IMG/VR virus record: IMGVR_UViG_3300043449_002191
Coordinates: 1-64,000 of that record
Reading direction: 5' to 3' (one strand)
DNA: 64,000 bases
Origin: a virus
In this document: one piece after another, positions 1 through 10,565 of the stretch
Numbering within the stretch: the stretch's first letter is position 1
How the letters are laid out: each line of letters starts with the position of its first letter
The notes under the pieces: model-generated
Databases searched by the model: none
What the model was told of the DNA's origin: nothing
The model's input: only the letters and a program-made list of their open reading frames with translations
Program-made: the position numbers and the translations under genes

Positions 1-2
1 AT

Positions 3-3000
3 GTTAGAAAAGCAATAGCTTCAAACCCAAACCTTGATCCTGTACATCATGCTAAACTAGTTAATGATGCAAAGCCTGATGTTAGAGAAGCAATAGCTGA
101 AAATCCATCTTACATAAAATGGTTAGAAAACCAAAAAAACGAATCTCTAATTAAAATGTCTAGACCTAAAATCACATTCCCTCAAATGGGAGTTGGAACT
201 AGACCCGACCAAGAAGTTCAGTTGGTAGAGACTCCTAGACAAAAGAAGCTTTTTGCTCGCAAAGTTGCTCAACAAAAAATACCAGACAAAGTAGCTACAA
301 CACTTACTGCGGATTATCAACCTAAAGAAGTAAAAGTTTCTATGCAGGCTTCTAGAGATAGAGAAACAAAGAAACTCGTAAACACCCTTTCCGGCAGGAC
401 TTTAGGACTAAGTGCTACTACGCCTACAAAACCTTTTTCAGTTACTTTAGCCGGAAAAGAGCGCTCTAAGTTCGAAGAAGGCGATGAAGAGTACAAAAAG
501 AAATTAAGTGAACATGAACAAAAAACAAAAGCACTAAAGTTAGGCTATAAGCAAGCGTTAGATGAATGGTGGAATAAAAAATATCAAGCAACCCTCAGAG
601 GCGACCCTGGCGCTCTTACAATAGAAGAGTTAAAAACAACAAAGCCTGTAGAGCCCAAATACCCCAGGAGACCGTCTAAAAAGAAAGTTGACACTAGCAA
701 ACTTTCACCTGAGAAAATTAAAGCCCGTGGCCAATCAGTTGATTCAACCATACATCATGAAGCTTTCCATGATAGTTTAGCTAGAATTAAAGCAAAACAC
801 GGACAAAAGGCTTATTCTGGAGTACTCCAAGGGCTTTTGAGTCATTATGACAAAGACACTCTTACTCATGTAGGCACATTTATAAGCAAAGTCCTTGGGT
901 ATAAACCTAGAACCCCATCCTTTTCAGAAGAACTTGTTACCCATAGCAGAGATATTTTAGCAAACGATGCTAAAAGAAAAAAGTTCGTAGAATTCATTAA
1001 AAAGATGAATCCTGAAAAAGGTGAAGAAAAAGCTAAAGAAGTTATCCAAAAAATGAAAAAAGGCCATCAAAAGGCTTATGAGTGGTCACAAAAATTAAAG
1101 CCAGAAGATGTATTAAAGTCTATACTTTTGTCGGATAATCTCAACAAAGCAGAAGACTTAGAAAAAGGTGCAGCTAGACGTTTATATGGAAAATTTAATC
1201 CACAAAAAGAGCTGGAAGAAACTGACAACGAAATGTCAGATTGGGTTACTGGAAATAGTGAATCCCGTGAAAAAATCCCAGATCCATCGCCAAACGCTAA
1301 ATTAAGGATGATGAATAAGCTTTCATCAAAAGCTCAAGTAAGAATTAATCCACAAACAAAACAAAGAGAGTTTTTACTGCACAGACAAATGTCTGATTAT
1401 GAATATGATGAAAACGCAAAAAATGGCAGAATAAATCATAATCCGTCAACTGATAACAGCGGCCACACCTCTTGGAGTTCAAACTTGGACAAAATTTACT
1501 CTGGAATATATTCCAGAGATTCTTTTGATAAAGATGACAACCAAAGTTATAATCATATAGTTTCTGCATGGATTCCAGAATCTCATATAAAAACTATACC
1601 CATTCAATACGGTGCTGCAGGAACTCAAAGTCGCAAAAAAGAAAACGGACCCCCAACAAGCACTTCTCAGAAAGAGCAAGAAGTTATCGTGAATCCAGGC
1701 CATAATTCTGAAATACATGAAGTATATAAAGATACTGGCGCAGATCCTGAAAACTGGAATTGGCAGAAAACTTTCCAAAAATCAGAATCATTAGAAAAAG
1801 GCTTAAAAGGCGATTGGCAAAAAGAAGGCTACACAATGCAGCATTCCCATAATTCTGATTTAAACCAACACAGAATTACAGCTTTTACCCCAAAAGGCGA
1901 TGTAGCTGGCTCATTTATATTTGAGCAAGGTCCAACTGGATTTATGGCTACATCTGCCCACGTAAAACCAGAGCATCAGCGAAAAGGTCTTGCCTCATCA
2001 GCTTACCAGCTATTTGAAAATAGATCTGGACAAAAGTTGATGCCTCATACAGGCAGATTTGGTGAAAGTAAACAGTCCCCAGATGCTGAAGCACTATGGG
2101 CTAATCCAAATAAAACTTTCGGTAAATCAGAAGATTTTGGAAAAAACAATTATTCTTTTGTTGGAACTTGTATAGATATTGGCAAAGAAAATCACCAATT
2201 AACTAATATTGGCGATGCATCTGATTGGGACAGAATGACGACAGAAGAATCTGTACCTATTTCAAAACAAAAATTTGAAAACTATACAGGTAAAAAATAT
2301 AAAAATGCTATATCTTTTGGAATACATCCAGAACATAAATTTATATGGGCAGAACTTCCACATTCAGATGGGGTTGGGACAGTACATCATTATTATTTTA
2401 AAAACTTCGGTAAATCAGAAGATTTAATTAAAACAGAAACAAAGATTAAACAGCTAGCAAATCAGTATGCTACCAATAAAGGCATGAAGTTAAGCCATAA
2501 CTACCAAGTCAATCTTAATCCAGATCACGGTAAAGCTGTAGCTCATGCTTACGACCAAATGAAGCATGACCCAGAACATCCAGAAACAAAAGCCGCATAT
2601 AATGCCCTTATCGGTGAAACTGGTGACCAATTCCAGCATCTAATGAATAGTGGGCTTAAAATATCTAGAATGCAGCCTGGGCAGGAAAATCCATACAAAT
2701 CTTCTAAAGATATGCTACATGACCTCCATGTAAATAATCATTTATGGTATTATCCTACTGAACAAGGATTTGGAGATAGTGAACAAGAAAAGGCGCACCC
2801 CATGCTCCAAACTACTAAATTCTCTGACAACAAAAACCCACTTTTAGCTAATGATATTTTTAGAATTGTCCATGACGCTTTTGGACATGGATTAACTAAT
2901 TCTACTTTTGGGCCTAAAGGCGAACACGCTAGTTATTTAGCGCATAAAGAAATGTTTAGCCCTCTAGCTCAAAAGGCACTAACTACTGAGACTTTAGGCC

Positions 3001-3128
3001 AGAACAGTTGGGTAAACTTTGGACCTAAAGGTGAACATAACAGGAAAAATCCTGAGCAAACGATTTTCGCAGAACAAAAAGCCGGACTTTTACCTGAATC
3101 TATTTTAAAAGGTAAATGGCATGAATAG
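3..3128 (+). CDS. 5'-truncated polyvalent/polyprotein (LRV/HEAT-like repeats, HExxH module, ART-like, GNAT, unknown module, HDxFGH module); probable virion head cargo
   Basis: The frame is open from nt 3 (VRKAIASNPNLDP...VREAIAENP...QKNESLIK-MSRPK), so ATG156 is probably internal. Motifs: HHEAFH; LLHR..TSWSS..EQEVIV; VKPEHQRKGLAS; HDAFGH. Modules are separated by KxExLxK linkers. Confidence 0.75.
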   Translation, partial: VRKAIASNPNLDPVHHAKLVNDAKPDVREAIAENPSYIKWLENQKNESLIKMSRPKITFPQMGVGTRPDQEVQLVETPRQKKLFARKVAQQKIPDKVATTLTADYQPKEVKVSMQASRDRETKKLVNTLSGRTLGLSATTPTKPFSVTLAGKERSKFEEGDEEYKKKLSEHEQKTKALKLGYKQALDEWWNKKYQATLRGDPGALTIEELKTTKPVEPKYPRRPSKKKVDTSKLSPEKIKARGQSVDSTIHHEAFHDSLARIKAKHGQKAYSGVLQGLLSHYDKDTLTHVGTFISKVLGYKPRTPSFSEELVTHSRDILANDAKRKKFVEFIKKMNPEKGEEKAKEVIQKMKKGHQKAYEWSQKLKPEDVLKSILLSDNLNKAEDLEKGAARRLYGKFNPQKELEETDNEMSDWVTGNSESREKIPDPSPNAKLRMMNKLSSKAQVRINPQTKQREFLLHRQMSDYEYDENAKNGRINHNPSTDNSGHTSWSSNLDKIYSGIYSRDSFDKDDNQSYNHIVSAWIPESHIKTIPIQYGAAGTQSRKKENGPPTSTSQKEQEVIVNPGHNSEIHEVYKDTGADPENWNWQKTFQKSESLEKGLKGDWQKEGYTMQHSHNSDLNQHRITAFTPKGDVAGSFIFEQGPTGFMATSAHVKPEHQRKGLASSAYQLFENRSGQKLMPHTGRFGESKQSPDAEALWANPNKTFGKSEDFGKNNYSFVGTCIDIGKENHQLTNIGDASDWDRMTTEESVPISKQKFENYTGKKYKNAISFGIHPEHKFIWAELPHSDGVGTVHHYYFKNFGKSEDLIKTETKIKQLANQYATNKGMKLSHNYQVNLNPDHGKAVAHAYDQMKHDPEHPETKAAYNALIGETGDQFQHLMNSGLKISRMQPGQENPYKSSKDMLHDLHVNNHLWYYPTEQGFGDSEQEKAHPMLQTTKFSDNKNPLLANDIFRIVHDAFGHGLTNSTFGPKGEHASYLAHKEMFSPLAQKALTTETLGQNSWVNFGPKGEHNRKNPEQTIFAEQKAGLLPESILKGKWHE

Positions 3129-3675
3129 GCATAAAAGGTCTACCGAAGAGTATAAAAAAGAATTAAACCAAATGAATAGCGATCACACCTTATCTAAAGC
3201 GGCCCCTGATTATAAGACTCAGGCCAGCTCAGGAGTAATTGCTTACTATCCAGTTTCATTTCGTGGCAAAAAGCTTTCTGATGAAGGTGTCCCGTTCCAC
3301 ATGACTGTAAAATTTTTTGGACATAAAGACTCCCTAGATCTTAATGATGTTAAGCAAAGAGTGGAAAAACACAGAGCATTACTGTCCCAGCCTGTAGATG
3401 AAAAAGATATAATGGCTATTCCTCACAAGTTTAAAACTCAGACAGGCATCACTCATCACGTTTTATTGTTACATGGTGTTCCAGACCATGTTAAGCAAGT
3501 ATATGAAAACAATAAGGATATTGGAGCTACTTATAAAAGTTTTGCCCCACATATCACTGTTTCTGAAGAAATCTATAACCAATTAAACGGTAAACCAGCC
3601 AGAGCTACAGACTTAGGTATTAAGTTTCATCCTGCTGAGTTCAAGGTAGGCGACCAAGTACATAAGACTTTTTAG
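3121..3675 (+). CDS. 2H phosphoesterase (2'-5' RNA ligase / Acb1-like fold)
   Basis: Two HxT motifs (PFHMTVKF, APHITVS) about 84 aa apart; N-terminal leader ends in TLSK-A. Confidence 0.75.
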   Translation: MNRHKRSTEEYKKELNQMNSDHTLSKAAPDYKTQASSGVIAYYPVSFRGKKLSDEGVPFHMTVKFFGHKDSLDLNDVKQRVEKHRALLSQPVDEKDIMAIPHKFKTQTGITHHVLLLHGVPDHVKQVYENNKDIGATYKSFAPHITVSEEIYNQLNGKPARATDLGIKFHPAEFKVGDQVHKTF

Positions 3676-3679
3676 AAAC

Positions 3680-3688
3680 CCTAATCTT
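3680..3688 (+). promoter_or_regulatory. CCTAATCTT putative late promoter (first of 15 copies)
   Basis: Exact copies at 3680, 6736, 7625, 10522, 14199, 17875, 19882, 29572, 30699, 32810, 33731, 39703, 42370, 50852 and 53571, each within ~100 nt upstream of a + strand start. Confidence 0.85.
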
Positions 3689-3711
3689 TTTAATAGAATA
3701 TTGGGGAGCTT

Positions 3712-6700
3712 ATGGCTGAGCGTAAAGAAGAAAAGAAGATTTCTATTCCTAAAAAAGAATTAGTCCAGGAACACAAGCATTTAGTTAGTGTCCTTGAATC
3801 CCCTTCTCATAAAGATGATATTGCAGAAGCTACAAAGCAACGTAAAGAATTAAAGGGATATACTAAAAAAGCAGACCCACTTGCATCAGAACTTACATCT
3901 GAAAAAGGTGTTTCAGAATCTGGCATTGAAGCAAGAAGAGCCGACCCAAAACAAAAAGGTCTAGTGTCACATGGATATGCTAGAATTACTTCACCAGAAA
4001 AGCATGGCGAAAGAGCTAAAAACTATTTCAGGCAGACGTTAAATAAACTTAAAGCTCAAGCTAAGCCAAATCTCCCTAAATCTGAAGAAGCCATGGAAAA
4101 GTCTACAGCCCTAGAAAGATACCTTAAAGCAAAAGGTAAAAGTAAATGGGAAGCGAGAGCTAAAAGATCAGCAGGTACTCCAAAAGGTGTTCATACCCCC
4201 ACAAAAGTTAAAGGTGGAAATAGTGAAGCTGGTGATTTTGCTATAGGAAGAAAAGTTCCAGCAAACGATTACGATTTTTCTCCAAACAGAACAGCCGGAA
4301 AAGAAAAAGCAAGATCTTTACACGCAAACAAATTAAAAGAACTTCGCAATATGCCTAAGCCAAATCTACCTAAATCTGAATATGAAGATATTGATAATGA
4401 TGGCAAGAATGATGCACAAGAATCTCATGGCCAGATTAATAGAAAAAAAGCTGATTTAAATCAAGATGGCAAAATTACTCACAAAGAAGCTGTAAAAGCA
4501 TCTAGCATGAAAAAAGAAGAGCTAGACAAAAAAGATAGATGCTGGGATGGATATAAACCAGTCCCTGGTAAAAAGCCGTATGAAAAAGGTTCTTGCGCCC
4601 CAATTGAAAAGTCAGAAGAAGTTCCATGCACCTGTGGAGCTGAAGATATCAAAAAAGACGAAAAGCCTTTTCATGGGTACAATAAAGAAAAGCATTCAAA
4701 GTCTGGCGGATTAAATGATAAATACCGTAAAAAGTATAATCGTGAAACTGGCTCTAATTTACAACGTCCAAGTAAAGATAAAGACAATTCTAGGCATAAA
4801 TCATTTTGTGCAAGAATGTCTGGAGTAAAAGGTCCAACTTCAAAAGAAGGAAAACTTACCCCTAAAGGCGCAGCTTTAAAAAGATGGAATTGCTCTAAAA
4901 ACGATGACGCTAAAAATCTTACTAAAGATGAATCAGCAGCAACTGCCGTTGCACCAAAAATCTGGTCTATTAAGCATCAGCCAACAGAACAGGGCGGTTT
5001 TGTACATTTTTCTCATCCACAACACGGAACTGTAACAATTAAGAAAAACCCAAGACCTGGACTTGCTACTGAAAACCCGTATGTTGCTGTTCACAATGGA
5101 GCCCCTGTTGGTAGATATAAGGATATCCATACTGCGGTCCATGGTGTAAAAAATTATGTTAGTACTTTGGGTAAACAGACTAATACTAGAATGATTAACA
5201 GACCAGTTGCAAAATCTGAATATTTTAAGCTTAAGCTTGAATCATTAAAAAAAGCTGGGTGGGGATTTGGACTTGGCGGAACTTGGGGATTTCACACTAT
5301 TAATAATGATGAAAGCTCTAATAGATTTGGTAAAGATGATCAAGACCCTAAAGTTTGGCCAGAAGATCACCCAGACTACCGTCATCATTCAAAAAACGCA
5401 ACTCCATATACAGGAGCTGGAGTAACTCGTAATAGTCGTGGCGGAGCTAGCGTTTCAGTTGGTAGTAGAGGTCATTATATTGATGCAGATCAAGTTCCGC
5501 ATATAATTAACGCTCTTACTAGAGGTAAAAAGGCAACAGTAGAATCTAAAGGTTTTGGAAGAAAAGCTGAATACGGGCCAGAGCATCTTGAAGAGTTTAA
5601 GAAAGTTTTTTCTAAAAAGACAGAAGGCTTAGGTAAATCAGAAAAGCTAAAAAAAGATGAAGGCAGTTCATCTTATGTAGATGGCTATTTAAATAAGATG
5701 GACAAATCCCTAAAGACTTTTCTTTTACACAAAGACCGAAATGTTGATTCTATAGTTAATTCTGCATTAAATAAAGGGCAAAAAGAAAAAGCTTTACATA
5801 AATTAAAATCTCAAGAAAAATATTTAAGACGAGGATATGAATTTTCAAAATTTGTTAAAGATTCTAAAAATTCTCAAACGGGTCCTCAAATTAAAACTGG
5901 AACTTTAAGTGGAGCAAAATATAAAGATCGCCCAATTCCAAAATTCGGTATTGTCGCTGGCCATACTTGCCCACAAAAAGGTAATTGTTTTGGTACTTGT
6001 TATGCATTGCAAGGCCAATATGATATGAATAAAAATCTTATTACAAATAATGTCAATAATTGGGCTGCAGCAGAGAGAGATGATTTTGTACCTAAAATGT
6101 CAGAACATATTAGCAAAACTGTTCACCCAGGCTCTCTTTTTAGAATTCATGATTCTGGAGATTTTTATAGTCAAGATTACCTAGACAAATGGAGAGATAT
6201 CGCAAAAAACCATCCAGATAAAACCTTTTATGCATATACTAAATCATTAAATTTAAACTTTGATGATATCGATAAGCTTCCAAATTTTAAGATAATTAGA
6301 TCTATTGGAGGTCAGCAAGATGATAAGATTGACCCAAGTAAGCCCCATGCTGTAATTTTTCCTAATATAGAAGAGCTGCACAAGAACGGATACACCTATG
6401 TTGGCGATAACGATGCTTTAGCCGCAGATCCAAATGTCACAAAAATAGGACTAGTCCATCACGGTACTAAAGGTAGAGATTTTCATCCAAATATTTATTC
6501 ACATTTAGGGATAAATCTAGCTGATACAAAAGTTAGAAAAGCCCCTAAAGCAGATAAAAAACCTAAATTAAAACAAGAGTCTAGTCCAAGTTTTGATGTT
6601 AAACTCATTAAAAATGAAATAGCTAATAACCAAGAAAGTTTATCTGGACATACTTTAGACCAGCCAGATTTAATGAATAGACTTATGGATGATTATAAAT

Positions 6701-6750
6701 TGAATAATTATTTTAAAGCTAAATTGGCTAAAAACCCTAATCTTAAGTAG
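3712..6750 (+). CDS. Polyprotein with duplicated KPNLPKSE module, EF-hand-like loops, CWxGY motif, DUF6321-like module and Gp88-like (radical SAM-related) domain
   Basis: DIDNDGKND and DLNQDGKIT; CWDGY..GSC; GGLN..RKKYNRETGSNL..KSFCARM..RWNC; TCPQKGNCFGTCYA..RIHDSGDFY..FYAYTKS; many KSE/KKDE linkers. Confidence 0.65.
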   Translation: MAERKEEKKISIPKKELVQEHKHLVSVLESPSHKDDIAEATKQRKELKGYTKKADPLASELTSEKGVSESGIEARRADPKQKGLVSHGYARITSPEKHGERAKNYFRQTLNKLKAQAKPNLPKSEEAMEKSTALERYLKAKGKSKWEARAKRSAGTPKGVHTPTKVKGGNSEAGDFAIGRKVPANDYDFSPNRTAGKEKARSLHANKLKELRNMPKPNLPKSEYEDIDNDGKNDAQESHGQINRKKADLNQDGKITHKEAVKASSMKKEELDKKDRCWDGYKPVPGKKPYEKGSCAPIEKSEEVPCTCGAEDIKKDEKPFHGYNKEKHSKSGGLNDKYRKKYNRETGSNLQRPSKDKDNSRHKSFCARMSGVKGPTSKEGKLTPKGAALKRWNCSKNDDAKNLTKDESAATAVAPKIWSIKHQPTEQGGFVHFSHPQHGTVTIKKNPRPGLATENPYVAVHNGAPVGRYKDIHTAVHGVKNYVSTLGKQTNTRMINRPVAKSEYFKLKLESLKKAGWGFGLGGTWGFHTINNDESSNRFGKDDQDPKVWPEDHPDYRHHSKNATPYTGAGVTRNSRGGASVSVGSRGHYIDADQVPHIINALTRGKKATVESKGFGRKAEYGPEHLEEFKKVFSKKTEGLGKSEKLKKDEGSSSYVDGYLNKMDKSLKTFLLHKDRNVDSIVNSALNKGQKEKALHKLKSQEKYLRRGYEFSKFVKDSKNSQTGPQIKTGTLSGAKYKDRPIPKFGIVAGHTCPQKGNCFGTCYALQGQYDMNKNLITNNVNNWAAAERDDFVPKMSEHISKTVHPGSLFRIHDSGDFYSQDYLDKWRDIAKNHPDKTFYAYTKSLNLNFDDIDKLPNFKIIRSIGGQQDDKIDPSKPHAVIFPNIEELHKNGYTYVGDNDALAADPNVTKIGLVHHGTKGRDFHPNIYSHLGINLADTKVRKAPKADKKPKLKQESSPSFDVKLIKNEIANNQESLSGHTLDQPDLMNRLMDDYKLNNYFKAKLAKNPNLK

Positions 6751-6766
6751 GTAAAGAGGTAATAAA

Positions 6767-7366
6767 ATGGATAAAAAACAACTTTTAGAAATGACTAAAG
6801 CTTTACTTATTAAAGCTCAAAAAGATGGCCTTAAAAAAGATGATATGCCACATCCTGCTAATTCCCCAGAAGACAAGGCTCATGATATCGTAGAAGAGGA
6901 TGAAAGCATTAAGCAAGCCTTGGCTATCCTAGATACTCCTGAAAAACAAGCTAAAATGTTTGAACACCTCCGCTCTTTGTCTGATAAAGAAAGTCTCCGT
7001 TCACCTGAAAATCAAGAAGCAGGTAAGGAAATGGAAAAATCAGCAATTGAGATCGTAAAAGGATTGCTTAAGAAGTCCCAAGAAAACCCTGCTGAGTTTG
7101 AAGAAATGGCTAAGGCTTTGATGCCAGCCCCTGCTACACCCCCTGCTGCTCCAAAAGGCACCGCAAAAGCTCCTGCAGCTAAAATGCCTAAAGCACCTAA
7201 AATGCCTAAAAGTCCAGCTGCTCCTGCTCCTCAGATGATGAAAGAGGAAAAAAAGGAAAAAAAGGAAGAAATGGAAAAATGCGGTCCAATGAAGATGAGC
7301 AAAGAAGAGATTAAAGAAGATTTAAAGAAGGAATGGAAGCCTAAATTCAAAAAGGAATCTAAATAA
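6767..7366 (+). CDS. Charged, helical scaffold-like head protein
   Basis: Lys/Glu/Pro/Ala rich; repeated EMEKS, LKKS, EMAKA, EMEKC motifs; follows a CCTAATCTT box. Confidence 0.45.
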   Translation: MDKKQLLEMTKALLIKAQKDGLKKDDMPHPANSPEDKAHDIVEEDESIKQALAILDTPEKQAKMFEHLRSLSDKESLRSPENQEAGKEMEKSAIEIVKGLLKKSQENPAEFEEMAKALMPAPATPPAAPKGTAKAPAAKMPKAPKMPKSPAAPAPQMMKEEKKEKKEEMEKCGPMKMSKEEIKEDLKKEWKPKFKKESK

Positions 7367-7629
7367 TGTCACAAAAGAAACGTGAGATTAAAAAAGAATA
7401 TACCATTGTTGGCCAGAAAGCTGAAGAAAATCAAACTCTTACAGCTAATCAGCCACAGCCTATGCATATTCAAATTTCTTTTGATCAATGGTGGTTACAA
7501 ACGCAACAAAAATATAACTTTAAAACTGACCTTAAAGAGGCCCTGAAGAAACACTTTGAAGCCAAAGGTTTCATGGACGATAGTAGGAATTTCGATAAAG
7601 GGTTGAAAGATTTTGGGTTTAATACCTAA
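7366..7629 (+). CDS. Hypothetical virion protein
   Basis: TAATG-coupled to the previous ORF; lies just before the sheath gene. Confidence 0.6.
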   Translation: MSQKKREIKKEYTIVGQKAEENQTLTANQPQPMHIQISFDQWWLQTQQKYNFKTDLKEALKKHFEAKGFMDDSRNFDKGLKDFGFNT

Positions 7630-7658
7630 TCTTTTATATAGGCAGTGGAGGATTAAAA

Positions 7659-10433
7659 ATGGCTCAATCATTTACTAACGAAGACGGTATTACGCTGATA
7701 AATCCAGGTACTTATGTATCAGTATCTGTTAAATCTGGACAAGGAGCTATTGCTTCTGCCGGAGTTGTTACACTCATCGGTGAAGCTGATGAAGGAGACG
7801 GATTCCTTTCTGAATCTGATCTCGCTGATGTAGCATTTACCCCTGATCAATATGGTAAAGTATTGCTCAAGTACGGTTCTGGTCGCATCGTTGATGCCTT
7901 CAGAGCTATTGTTGCTGCTGCTAACGATCCTAATATCGCAGGCGCTGTAACACTAGTAAGAATTTTAAAAACAAACCAATCAACTGCTGCCTCTGCATTG
8001 ATGTCAAAAATCCAAGCTGACTACGCTGAACTTAAAGCTCGTAAAGCTGGTGCCCCTGGAAATACTATCCGCTTTAAATCAGAAGCTGTATCTGTAGAAG
8101 TTGCTCCTGAAACAGGAAAAATCTCTTACGCTCCTCTTTTGACTGGAAGCGCATCTTTGGGAGTTCGTGCTAACGGATTGATCAACTCTTCTATTTCTGT
8201 ATCTGCTAAACAATCTGCTGAAGCTCTTGTAGCTTCTATTGAAGATTTACAAAAAGGTATCCTAGCTAAAGGTGGGCAAGAAAAACTTATCTTGCCTGCT
8301 GCTGGAACTACAATTAGTTTAGCCGCTGCCGATGCATCTACAATTGTAATCACACTTGCTACTGGCTCTCAATGGACAGAAGTTCCTGAAGCTGGCGATA
8401 CTCTTGTTATCCCTGCTAACGGTGATTACTCTGCTGCTCAAGATTCTGCTATCTCTGGTGCTGCTGGAGAAAACGTAGGTACATACATCGTTCAAGATGC
8501 TACAAATACTTTGACTTCAGCTACTATCACTGCTAAGAAAATTTCTGCTGCAGGATCTCTTGCTGGAGATTCTGGCACAGTAAGTGTAGATAAGCGTGAT
8601 ATCGTTATCTACAAACAAATCGAAATCAAAAACCTTTCTGGTCAAGACCTTAAAGCCCTTGTAGGAGTCGATGGGTCTTACCAATCTACTCTCAATGATG
8701 GTGTTAACGCAAAAATCCAACTTCCTGCTGGAAAAGTTTTTGCAACTCAACCTAAAGCTGGAGACATTGCGGTATTAGAAGCTGCTTTCTGTTCTGTTGC
8801 TGCTGGTTTCTACCAAGTTGTTAGCGCTACAACTAACACTGTAACTTTAACTAGACTTTCAGAAGGAAGCTCTGGATCTACCACTTCTTCTGAAGCTGTA
8901 GCTGCTCCAGTAGAAGAAGCTACTCAACCTATGAAATTGATGCAAAAAGAGATCGATGGACTCGGTAAAACTCTTTGTATCGAAGGTGACGTAGAAGCTA
9001 TCTTCAAAAAAGCTGATGGGTCTGCTGCTGGACTTTCTAACAAACAACTTATTTCTGCTTCTGAATATAAGAACCAAATGACATACACTAAAGGTGATGC
9101 TTCTGAGTCTCTTAAAGCTGGCGGTGAAGTTGTACTCCTCGTTGGATGCTCTGAAGAAGATGCTACAATGGTTATCGATGATTCTAAAATTGACTTTAAA
9201 GTTGCATCTGTAACTAGATTTTCTGCCTCCTATAAAGACTTTAAAACACTTTCTGACCTTGCTTCTTATATCAGCTCTCAGACTAACTTCTCTGCGTCAG
9301 TTGCTTCTTCTAAGTACGCTGCAGCTAAACCTGCTGACTTAGATAACGGCACATTTGCTATCTCTGGACTTGAGTCTCATAAGAACGGAAGAATTAAGAG
9401 AGATGCTTCTGAGTGGGCTAAAGCAAACGCTGGGTCTACACTTGTAGCTGTTACTCTTAAGGCTGAAGCTGGTCTTCCTGTTACTTCTGCTGACAAGTTC
9501 TTGACTGGTGGAGCTAAGAACGGAACTACTTCTGCTCTTATCACTACAGCTATTGACGCTGCAGAAAAACTTGAAACAAACTTTGTTGTACCTCTTTTCT
9601 CAGTAGATGCTGATGCAGACATCGAGCAGAGCGAAACTGAAAGCTCTTCCACTTATACAATTGATGCCATCAATGCTTACGCTAAAGCACACGTCATCAA
9701 AATGTCTGCCATCAAAATGAAGAAAAACAGAGTAGCACTTCTTTCTAAAGAATCATCTTACGATGCTGCTAAGGAAGCTGCCGGAGAACTTTCTTCTTAC
9801 AGAACTTATCTCTGCGTACAAAAAGCTAAAAACGTATCTTCTACTGGTGAAATCAAGATGTACCAACCTTGGATGTCTGCAATTATCGCTGCTGGAATGC
9901 AAGCTGCTGCAGGTTACAAAGGTATTGTTAAGAAGTTTGCCAATGTAACTGGTATCGCTACTCCAGAAGGCGACTTCGACCCGAACCTCCCTGGTGATTC
10001 TGAAGATGCATTGAAAGCCGGAATCCTTTTTATGGAAAAAGTTCCAACTGGTGGATTCCGCTGGGTATCTGATCAATCTACATACAGCTTAGACAATAAC
10101 TTTGTCTATAACAGCTTACAAGCTGTCTATATCAGCGACCTTATCACACTTACTCTTATTGATCGTTTTGATAAGCTTGTTGTTGGTAAATCAGTTGCTC
10201 AAATGACTGCAAATGCCGCTCTTTCAATCCTTGAAGCTGAAATGTTTAACTTCCAGCGTCTACGTTGGATTGCTTCTTCCGATGATGCTCCTAAAGGATA
10301 CAAGAATGCAACTGCCACACTTAACGGTGGAGTAATGGAAATTGCTGTAGAAATCAAATTGGCAGGACTTATTTACTTTGTTCCTATCAGCCTTTCTATC
10401 AGTCAAGTTACTCAGACAGCGGCTCAACAATAA
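7659..10433 (+). CDS. Contractile tail sheath protein with large insertion
   Basis: N-term PGTYVSV..VVTLIGEADEG; C-term sheath domain (ALKAGILFMEK..RWVSDQSTY..YFVPISLSI); GGAGG SD. Confidence 0.9.
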   Translation: MAQSFTNEDGITLINPGTYVSVSVKSGQGAIASAGVVTLIGEADEGDGFLSESDLADVAFTPDQYGKVLLKYGSGRIVDAFRAIVAAANDPNIAGAVTLVRILKTNQSTAASALMSKIQADYAELKARKAGAPGNTIRFKSEAVSVEVAPETGKISYAPLLTGSASLGVRANGLINSSISVSAKQSAEALVASIEDLQKGILAKGGQEKLILPAAGTTISLAAADASTIVITLATGSQWTEVPEAGDTLVIPANGDYSAAQDSAISGAAGENVGTYIVQDATNTLTSATITAKKISAAGSLAGDSGTVSVDKRDIVIYKQIEIKNLSGQDLKALVGVDGSYQSTLNDGVNAKIQLPAGKVFATQPKAGDIAVLEAAFCSVAAGFYQVVSATTNTVTLTRLSEGSSGSTTSSEAVAAPVEEATQPMKLMQKEIDGLGKTLCIEGDVEAIFKKADGSAAGLSNKQLISASEYKNQMTYTKGDASESLKAGGEVVLLVGCSEEDATMVIDDSKIDFKVASVTRFSASYKDFKTLSDLASYISSQTNFSASVASSKYAAAKPADLDNGTFAISGLESHKNGRIKRDASEWAKANAGSTLVAVTLKAEAGLPVTSADKFLTGGAKNGTTSALITTAIDAAEKLETNFVVPLFSVDADADIEQSETESSSTYTIDAINAYAKAHVIKMSAIKMKKNRVALLSKESSYDAAKEAAGELSSYRTYLCVQKAKNVSSTGEIKMYQPWMSAIIAAGMQAAAGYKGIVKKFANVTGIATPEGDFDPNLPGDSEDALKAGILFMEKVPTGGFRWVSDQSTYSLDNNFVYNSLQAVYISDLITLTLIDRFDKLVVGKSVAQMTANAALSILEAEMFNFQRLRWIASSDDAPKGYKNATATLNGGVMEIAVEIKLAGLIYFVPISLSISQVTQTAAQQ

Positions 10434-10490: not shown

Positions 10491-10565
10491 GTTTTTAAGG
10501 GTATAATTATAAGTGCAATAACCTAATCTTAATAGAGACAAACCTTGCTTATATAAGGGGGCAAA

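Follow-up and report, generated by a model that had tools for sequence, protein, structure and literature searches.

In phage T4, a head protease of the assemblin fold recognizes the short motif L/I-x-E↓ (an arrow here and below marks a cut or a proposed cut), and enzymes cut in this way, the Alt ADP-ribosyltransferase among them, pass into the host on ejection. In HK97, the protease is gp4 and gp5 is cut after a Lys. Substrates of the T4 prohead protease gp21 are the internal proteins IPI-III, Alt, gp67 and gp68, which carry capsid-targeting leaders (review PMC9026906). In phiKZ and SPN3US, with the proteases gp175 and gp245, respectively, head-internal and ejected proteins share one motif, propeptides can contain multiple sites and the protease cuts itself, and all cleavages identified in SPN3US besides this self-cleavage yield N-terminal propeptides (PMC10052503, PMC5694885). 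Polyvalent proteins of phages and conjugative elements, as described by Iyer et al. 2017 (PMC5512222), are multi-domain products of late genes that are predicted to be packaged and show extensive domain shuffling; some contain an assemblin-like peptidase, said to be C-terminal, and a term search of that account turned up no inter-domain motif and 'linker' 0 times. The subject of the present analysis is a short linker, with the strict pattern K[SAN]E.[LFM].K, that recurs between the modules of proteins encoded at positions 3-7366 of a 64-kb window, namely the first 64 kb of the 157,341-bp IMG/VR record IMGVR_UViG_3300043449_002191. The ends of this record share a 68-bp terminal repeat, denoting a circular assembly, and the virus is an Mx1-like myophage of 157 kb, the open reading frames (ORFs) at 3-7366 belonging to its late-transcribed head block. 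Its nearest isolate is Myxococcus phage Mx1, with a capsid identity of 54% and the same gene order. Judged by its distribution in sequences, the linker is a specific, directional and head-block-restricted motif that relatives, Mx1 and many metagenomic homologues retain where modules meet.

The linkers are most numerous in ORF1, a polyvalent protein of 1688 amino acids (aa) that is cut by the record start; the full gene runs from genome position 155335 across the 68-bp repeat, and the part in the window (3-3128, on the + strand like all window features given below) encodes its C-terminal 1041 aa. ORF1 is composed of NUDIX, a region of ~280 aa, ~10 LRV-like repeats of 26 aa and then the linker-joined modules. 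Five linkers had been placed here by a first-pass annotation of the window, and all five are exact. J1 (KNESLIK, 135-155, then M-SRPKITFP) leads into module 1 (156-1145), delimited by homology blocks of relatives and marked by a conserved HExxH motif (HHEAFH, nucleotides (nt) 753-770) that is invariant in 26 homologues; this module is a predicted zincin-like metallopeptidase missed by Pfam. J2 (KAEDLEK, 1146-1166, then GAARR) precedes module 2 (1167-1778), which has no assigned function and is shuffled independently in relatives. J3 (KSESLEK, 1779-1799, then GLKGDW) opens a small GNAT acetyltransferase module (1800-2123), recognized by homology blocks, AlphaFold2 (AF2) and Foldseek. J4 (KSEDFGK, 2124-2144) and J5 (KSEDLIK, 2412-2432), which like J3 are covered by AF2, enclose a module of ~86 aa (2145-2411), flanked by linker DNA that is repeated exactly over 20 nt (2118-2137 and 2406-2425). 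The C-terminal module (2433-3125) matches phrog_3170 and is found in thousands of metagenomic proteins, in which it can stand anywhere along the chain; a Foldseek search of the PDB yielded no clear match to it and only a weak one to the GNAT part. A GNAT paralogue with the same flanking linkers is present in an 860-aa protein of the head block (genome 144917-147499), so that GNAT with both flanks is common to the two proteins, with 83% nucleotide identity at the junctions. The repeats in linker DNA suggest recent in-frame duplication or recombination at linkers. The LRV/HEAT-like repeats of mid-ORF1 (~10 tandem units of 78 nt or 26 aa, AxNPNLDPVHHAKLVN..) cover window positions 1-107 and genome 156663-157341, and their number may be unreliable in an assembly in which they span the record junction.

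In the proteome of 178 ORFs (50,834 aa), the strict motif has 12 copies where per-protein shuffles predict 0.82 (maximum 5 in 2000), and ORF1 alone holds 5 copies against 0.04 expected. All copies except one fall in the head block (11/12: 5 in ORF1, 2 each in the 860-aa and a 617-aa protein, 1 each in the 1012-aa ORF and the scaffold), and the motif is not equally frequent elsewhere, an outcome that the first-pass annotation had named as grounds for rejecting its reading. The reversed strict motif has 0 copies in the head block, so composition and the periodicity of amphipathic helices cannot account for the enrichment. The minimal motif E.L.K[TGASM] shows the same trend, with 19 copies against 2.7 expected in the head block (z 9.6), 4 against 1.4 in the tail block and 6 against 2.9 in the remaining genome, and its reversed or shifted controls give 6. 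Mx1 serves as an independent replicate: its head block contains 3 strict copies against 0.09 expected, with 0 elsewhere in 91 kb, and 8 minimal copies against 1.8 expected, the capsid N-terminus being among them. A position-specific scoring matrix built from the genome's own sites is circular and uninformative, and was replaced by the shuffles, the reversed-motif controls and the Mx1 replicate.

The supposition that the linkers fall at domain boundaries is borne out by relatives and by structure prediction. A megablast of the region against GenBank phages gave no match and a pattern scan of viral contigs with ORF1 gave no close relative; relatives were reached via the capsid protein, which yielded nine related viral contigs, three of which were examined for module order. 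In these three, ORF1 modules are found in other ORFs and orders, with the boundaries of BLAST blocks at the linkers, and in the relative G005 GNAT and the C-terminal module form separate small ORFs, each consisting of a leader of 68-137 aa, a linker and the module. With the window part of ORF1 as the HMMER query against cluster representatives, more than 5000 homologues were obtained, and the best 150 of them (149k aa) were checked for the motif: 39 proteins contain strict sites, 65 in all, whose median distance to a block boundary is 10 aa, and the extended consensus is [F/L/V]-[G/K]-K-S-E-x-L-x-K-[G/A/M/S/T]. In junction alignments the most constant element is [L/M]-x-K directly before the module, which agrees with the earlier placing of the boundary directly after the last Lys, and the modules start as K-M-SRP(R/K)ITFP, K-G-AARR or K-G-x-x-GDW. 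The Met of J1 is retained at 26/27 homologous junctions and resembles a fossil start codon, and some standalone module homologues begin exactly at the residue after the linker Lys. One lineage carries the variant A-A-S-E instead of K-S-E, and a distant contig encodes a 2470-aa homologue with four strict linkers together with a capsid of the same family, reading A-D-L-M-K↓A-L-E-A-G. In the AF2 model of ORF1 residues 1222-1688 (467 aa, mean predicted local distance difference test (pLDDT) 83.5), three confident domains are seen and three linkers lie in stretches of pLDDT <66 between them, not inside folded domains.

For the 1012-aa polyvalent protein (3712-6750), which contains DUF6321 (nt 4693-4887), GP88 (nt 5923-6444) and unassigned modules, the first-pass annotation had listed further linkers, with a mixed outcome. 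KSEKLKK (5635-5655) matches the regular expression and is the sole strict site of this ORF. KSEEAMEK (4078-4101, within KPNLPKSEE.MEK) and KSEYFKLKLESLKK (5212-5259, containing E-S-L-K-K↓A and followed by AGWG) are near-matches, both conserved by relatives, the former in G001 and G002. The listed KKEELDK and LTK↓D, however, lie outside the motif and do not differ from the Lys/Glu-rich background. The same holds for TLSK↓A in the 184-aa ORF with 2H likeness and for EMEK↓S and LKK↓S in the 199-aa ORF, which are at chance level; no significant linker was found in either of these two ORFs. The proposal that all four ORFs are polyproteins is retained only in part: late expression, the directional junction motif and its likeness to sites in capsid, scaffold and protease speak for it, but several of the linkers on which it was founded are at chance level. 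Within the 1012-aa ORF, a 25/26-nt repeat of linker-coding DNA (4061-4086 and 4355-4380) brackets a single module. Two EF-hand/dockerin-like loops (DIDNDGKND and DLNQDGKITHKE; window 4384-4470, ~residues 225-253) stand between two KPNLPKSE repeats, and by their sequence may bind calcium.

The first-pass annotation had drawn on a Lys-Ser cut of the capsid precursor by prohead proteases of Herelleviridae-type phages; a literature search found no verified Lys-Ser capsid cut in SPO1-like/Herelleviridae phages, and the relevant protease candidate is a kinase-fused protein of the assemblin fold, encoded outside the window in this Mx1-like phage. The gene (genome 123467-125173) specifies a 568-aa fusion of prohead protease and kinase, assigned through phrog_1028 and AF2/Foldseek. 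Its N-terminal 235 aa match the phrog_1028 head maturation protease (E 1.7e-12), neither His42 (NWEH) nor Ser119 (GFSIEG) varies among 55 homologues, residues 1-160 are modelled by AF2 with pLDDT >90, and all top Foldseek PDB matches are herpesvirus assemblins (probability 0.99-1.0). One remote homologue carries PF04586, and a PDB sequence search with the protease domain gave no match. From these models the gene product is a predicted assemblin-fold Ser/His prohead protease. The gene follows the portal gene and a 295-aa gene behind a late box, in the same order as in Mx1, whose 1239-aa 'putative prohead protease' has the same architecture of protease, N-arm copy and kinase plus a large insert; elsewhere, homologues of the protease are joined to modules of the GNAT, DUF6321, GP88 or kinase type.

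The N-arm in question is that of the capsid protein. Directly behind the protease domain stands E-D-L-N-K↓T-L-T-A-G-M-G-N-V-A-P-S-Q-L-V-G-G-A-A-L, and the capsid N-terminus reads …L-E-T-L-V-K↓T-L-E-A-G-N-Y-N-V-A-P-S-Q-L-V-Q-G-S-A-L; the segment behind the protease is a copy of the capsid N-arm and, with the preceding L-x-K, is kept in many homologues (L-x-K↓TLTAGMGN) and in Mx1. Ten related capsids have a variable leader of 8-20 aa ending in L-x-K, with E or Q at P5 in 9/10, followed by a nearly invariant [T/A]-[L/M]-E-A-G-N, and the N-terminus of the Mx1 capsid contains E-E-L-R-K↓AMEAGN. Such a pattern looks like the cut of a short propeptide and is typical of a processing site. The scaffold contains A-E-V-L-A-K↓S at residues 23-30, kept in G001 and G005, and two further E-x-L-x-K sites. 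The capsid precursor carries a shorter form of the linker, and E-x-L-x-K↓small is the putative site common to the linkers, the capsid N-terminus, the scaffold and the segment behind the protease.

The linker is probably, although with some reserve, a recognition site of the prohead protease, which would cut after its last Lys. A scheme of cleavage by this protease, packaging, ejection and effector action is proposed here from the motif, the domain types and the precedent of T4 and phiKZ/SPN3US. In such a scheme, the polyproteins would be synthesized late and co-assembled into the prohead, for which N-terminal leaders, repeats or fusion to the protease (the kinase here; GNAT, DUF6321 and GP88 in relatives) are candidate routes. 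The protease would cut after the linker Lys, and cuts of the same kind are proposed for E-T-L-V-K↓T-L-E-A-G-N at the N-terminus of the capsid, A-E-V-L-A-K↓S of the scaffold and E-D-L-N-K↓T-L-T-A-G, which follows the catalytic domain of the protease itself; once released, the modules would remain inside the head until they pass into the host together with the DNA. The enzyme types present (NUDIX, GNAT, kinases, a possible 2H phosphoesterase, SLT) would fit early roles in host takeover or counter-defence, as far as domain types indicate. A wider proposal, put forward tentatively, is that the site recognized by one clade of assemblin-type prohead proteases (S-E-x-L-x-K↓small) now serves, by co-option, as a universal 'cut-here' joint for plug-and-play, recombinable cargo cassettes across Mx1-like phages and metagenomic relatives. 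The cassettes would recombine in frame at the linker, helped by conserved DNA such as the exact 20-nt repeats, be loaded as one chain, sometimes fused to the protease, and be released as separate enzymes that enter with the DNA.

Several observations weigh against reading the linker as a prohead-protease site. Linker DNA is partly identical between copies (20 nt exact), so that some copies are recent duplicates and not independent, and relatives contain fewer strict sites than this phage. For GNAT, L-x-K-G could form part of the N-terminus of the domain itself, and the FGK found in many cases before S-E is the C-terminus of GNAT. The match of the linkers to the capsid, protease and scaffold sites comprises three fixed positions (E, L and K) and a small P1' residue. 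On the side of the enzyme, Foldseek E-values for the protease are only ~2e-3, the Pfam models Peptidase_S78 and S77 have no match in the genome, and the zincin-like HExxH module of ORF1 itself could be the processing enzyme. A search for virion proteomics or N-terminomics of Mx1 found none.

It seems unlikely, on balance, that the linker is instead a conserved joint which is never cut, be it a flexible or short-helix spacer or a motif bound by the scaffold, the portal or the capsid interior that would target each module to the prohead, with the chains packaged or acting at full length. Phi24B gp47, a large polyvalent protein, was found in virions by proteomics and has no described cleavage, the N4 vRNAP enters the virion unprocessed (PMC5512222), and AF2 gives the motif short helical turns, all of which a stable joint would accommodate; however, a mere spacer needs no seven fixed positions across phages of 35-55% GC, the E-x-L-x-K↓small of the capsid N-terminus, with its variable leader and conserved mature-looking start, has the hallmarks of processing, and standalone homologues start exactly after the Lys. 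Nor is the linker likely to be mainly a DNA-level device for in-frame recombination and cassette shuffling, with the peptide motif as a by-product, a view to which very little probability is given. The exact 20-nt repeat around the 86-aa module, the 25/26-nt repeat at 4061 and 4355, the 83% nucleotide identity between the GNAT junctions of ORF1 and the 860-aa protein, and module shuffling exactly at linkers would all be expected of such a device, but the peptide motif is held across genomes whose GC contents, at 35%, 37% and 55%, are too far apart for nucleotide identity to last, is directional at the protein level and restricted to head proteins, and is found in single-domain settings too, among them the scaffold and short leaders. 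Recombination at linker DNA is in any case compatible with a protease site rather than opposed to it.

A different cutter is equally a highly improbable explanation, in which the linkers would be processed not by the prohead protease but by the zincin-like HExxH module of ORF1, in an autoprocessing of the MPTase type, or by two paralogous ClpP-like proteases (genome 141635-142246 and 142807-143574) that form a host-type (TATAAT) transcription unit within the late block and are conserved in G001 and G002. All module 1 homologues retain HExxH, autoproteolysis of polyvalent proteins by embedded metallopeptidases was predicted by Iyer et al. 2017 (PMC5512222), and both ClpP-like genes best match 'head maturation protease' PHROGs. 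Yet G005, which has terminal repeats and is 100% complete, is without a module 1 homologue and keeps six strict linkers, and the 860-aa, 617-aa and 1012-aa proteins and the scaffold carry linkers without a zincin module. The ClpP-like pair was dropped as linker protease, since its first gene is preceded by a terminator hairpin and a TATAAT-type promoter instead of a late box and no match to the pair was found in the fetched 68-kb block of G005. The resemblance of the motif to the capsid and protease sites speaks against either enzyme, and the assemblin-fold prohead protease is favoured, with moderate confidence, as it occurs in all, belongs to the late genes and has the site in its own sequence.

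Late expression is indicated by a 9-nt late box, CCTAATCTT, with 26 copies on the + strand of the genome and 2 on the - strand. Every + strand copy precedes a gene at a distance of 4-91 nt and is usually followed by a T/A-rich stretch; the genes concerned, nearly all of which belong to the head or tail block, include ORF1, the 1012-aa ORF, the 199-aa ORF, the sheath and the protease-kinase. The boxes noted by the first-pass annotation are hence real, but they precede three of the four ORFs and not two. In the window they are located at 3680-3688 (23 nt before the 1012-aa ORF), 6736-6744 (before the 199-aa ORF) and 7625-7633 (before the tail sheath gene), with further copies at 10522, 14199, 17875, 19882, 29572, 30699, 32810, 33731, 39703, 42370, 50852 and 53571. 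The box probably acts as a promoter element for late transcription by a phage-encoded system; a sigma factor is annotated in Mx1.

The part of the head block upstream, outside the window, holds the terminase and portal genes, the 568-aa head maturation protease, whose fused kinase is PI3K/HipA-like, a scaffold-like 288-aa protein, the major capsid protein, the two ClpP-like genes, the 860-aa protein (GNAT and kinase), an SLT-domain protein and the 617-aa protein; the tail sheath gene (7659-10433) marks the end of the head and cargo block. Polyvalent genes thus stand between the capsid and sheath genes, behind late boxes. ORF1 and the 1012-aa ORF both agree with the definition of polyvalent proteins by two to 15 unrelated domains, and the polyvalent set of the head block comprises at least two of the four window ORFs and three similar proteins outside the window. 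Among Pfam hallmarks, ART-PolyVal, MPTase-PolyVal and LPD families gave nothing above threshold in this phage, in which ART was not detected; the Mx1 homologue has ART-PolyVal, and the enzyme types in Mx1 also include ART, SAM-lyase-like, mCpol-like and cyclase domains. PADLOC gave nothing useful.

The 184-aa ORF (3121-3675), whose start overlaps the ORF1 stop, has two H-x-T-x motifs (HMTV and HITV) and a weak likeness to 2H/Acb1/LigT phosphoesterases, with Pfam profiles short of their cut-offs (Acb1 E 0.012, LigT 0.064) and no match in a PDB sequence search. The 199-aa Lys/Glu/Pro-rich protein (6767-7366) has 93 N-terminal aa that are kept in relatives and, in two of them, fused to larger proteins. 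Outside the window, a 163-aa protein (genome 148524-149015) shares its N-terminal 80 aa with a 75-aa leader of G001 (G001 block ORF 14507) that precedes a linker and a zincin module there, and this common leader may be a shared head-targeting module. A 2068-aa late protein (genome 125771-131977) lies between the protease and scaffold genes; searches of Pfam, PHROG and the PDB gave no match for it, nor is it similar to the Mx1 gene at the equivalent position, and it was dropped as the equivalent of the Mx1 'putative prohead protease', the true equivalent being the 568-aa protease-kinase.

If the linker is a prohead-protease site, the long-standing prediction that polyvalent proteins are processed into separate effectors can be tested directly, as both site and enzyme would be specified and Mx1 can be cultivated as a model, virion cargo becomes predictable from sequence in a large group of uncultured phages, and the free shuffling of counter-defence enzymes is explained. 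In laboratory work with phage and host, the motif could also serve as a handle to load foreign proteins into capsids of this lineage.

Compared with known systems, the locus resembles T4 in its assemblin-fold head protease and in a short motif present in capsid, scaffold and internal proteins, with cleavage here predicted; it differs in that T4 proteins have one N-terminal leader each, whereas here S-E-x-L-x-K↓ stands between every module of multi-enzyme chains. From phiKZ and SPN3US it is set apart by the motif, which ends in Glu in SPN3US (A-x-E class), by products that are propeptides there and not strings of functional domains, and by the phages themselves, which are jumbo phages unrelated to this capsid lineage. 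With HK97 and the herpesvirus assemblins it shares the assemblin fold, the Ser/His dyad, a predicted post-Lys cut in the N-terminal region of the capsid protein and a protease with a capsid-targeting tail; in contrast to HK97, there is no delta domain but a short leader of 8-20 aa with a separate scaffold, and the tail of the protease reproduces the capsid N-arm and has a kinase attached. Polyproteins of eukaryotic RNA viruses, such as those with picornavirus 3C sites, offer an analogy without homology, in that one protease acts at a fixed short site between functional units, but the products here would be virion cargo and not replication proteins. The polyvalent proteins of PMC5512222 have a similar domain content, with NUDIX, GNAT, zincin and DUF6321 here and ART in Mx1; the assemblin domain, however, is N-terminal here with effectors fused behind it, and autoproteolysis by embedded peptidases was proposed there. 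A literature search found no defined, conserved inter-domain linker of polyvalent proteins that matches capsid and scaffold sites of the same phage. Head-protease processing, as in T4 and phiKZ/SPN3US, and packaged polyvalent proteins are already known, and what is new is a putative processing site of the linker type applied to polyvalent proteins.

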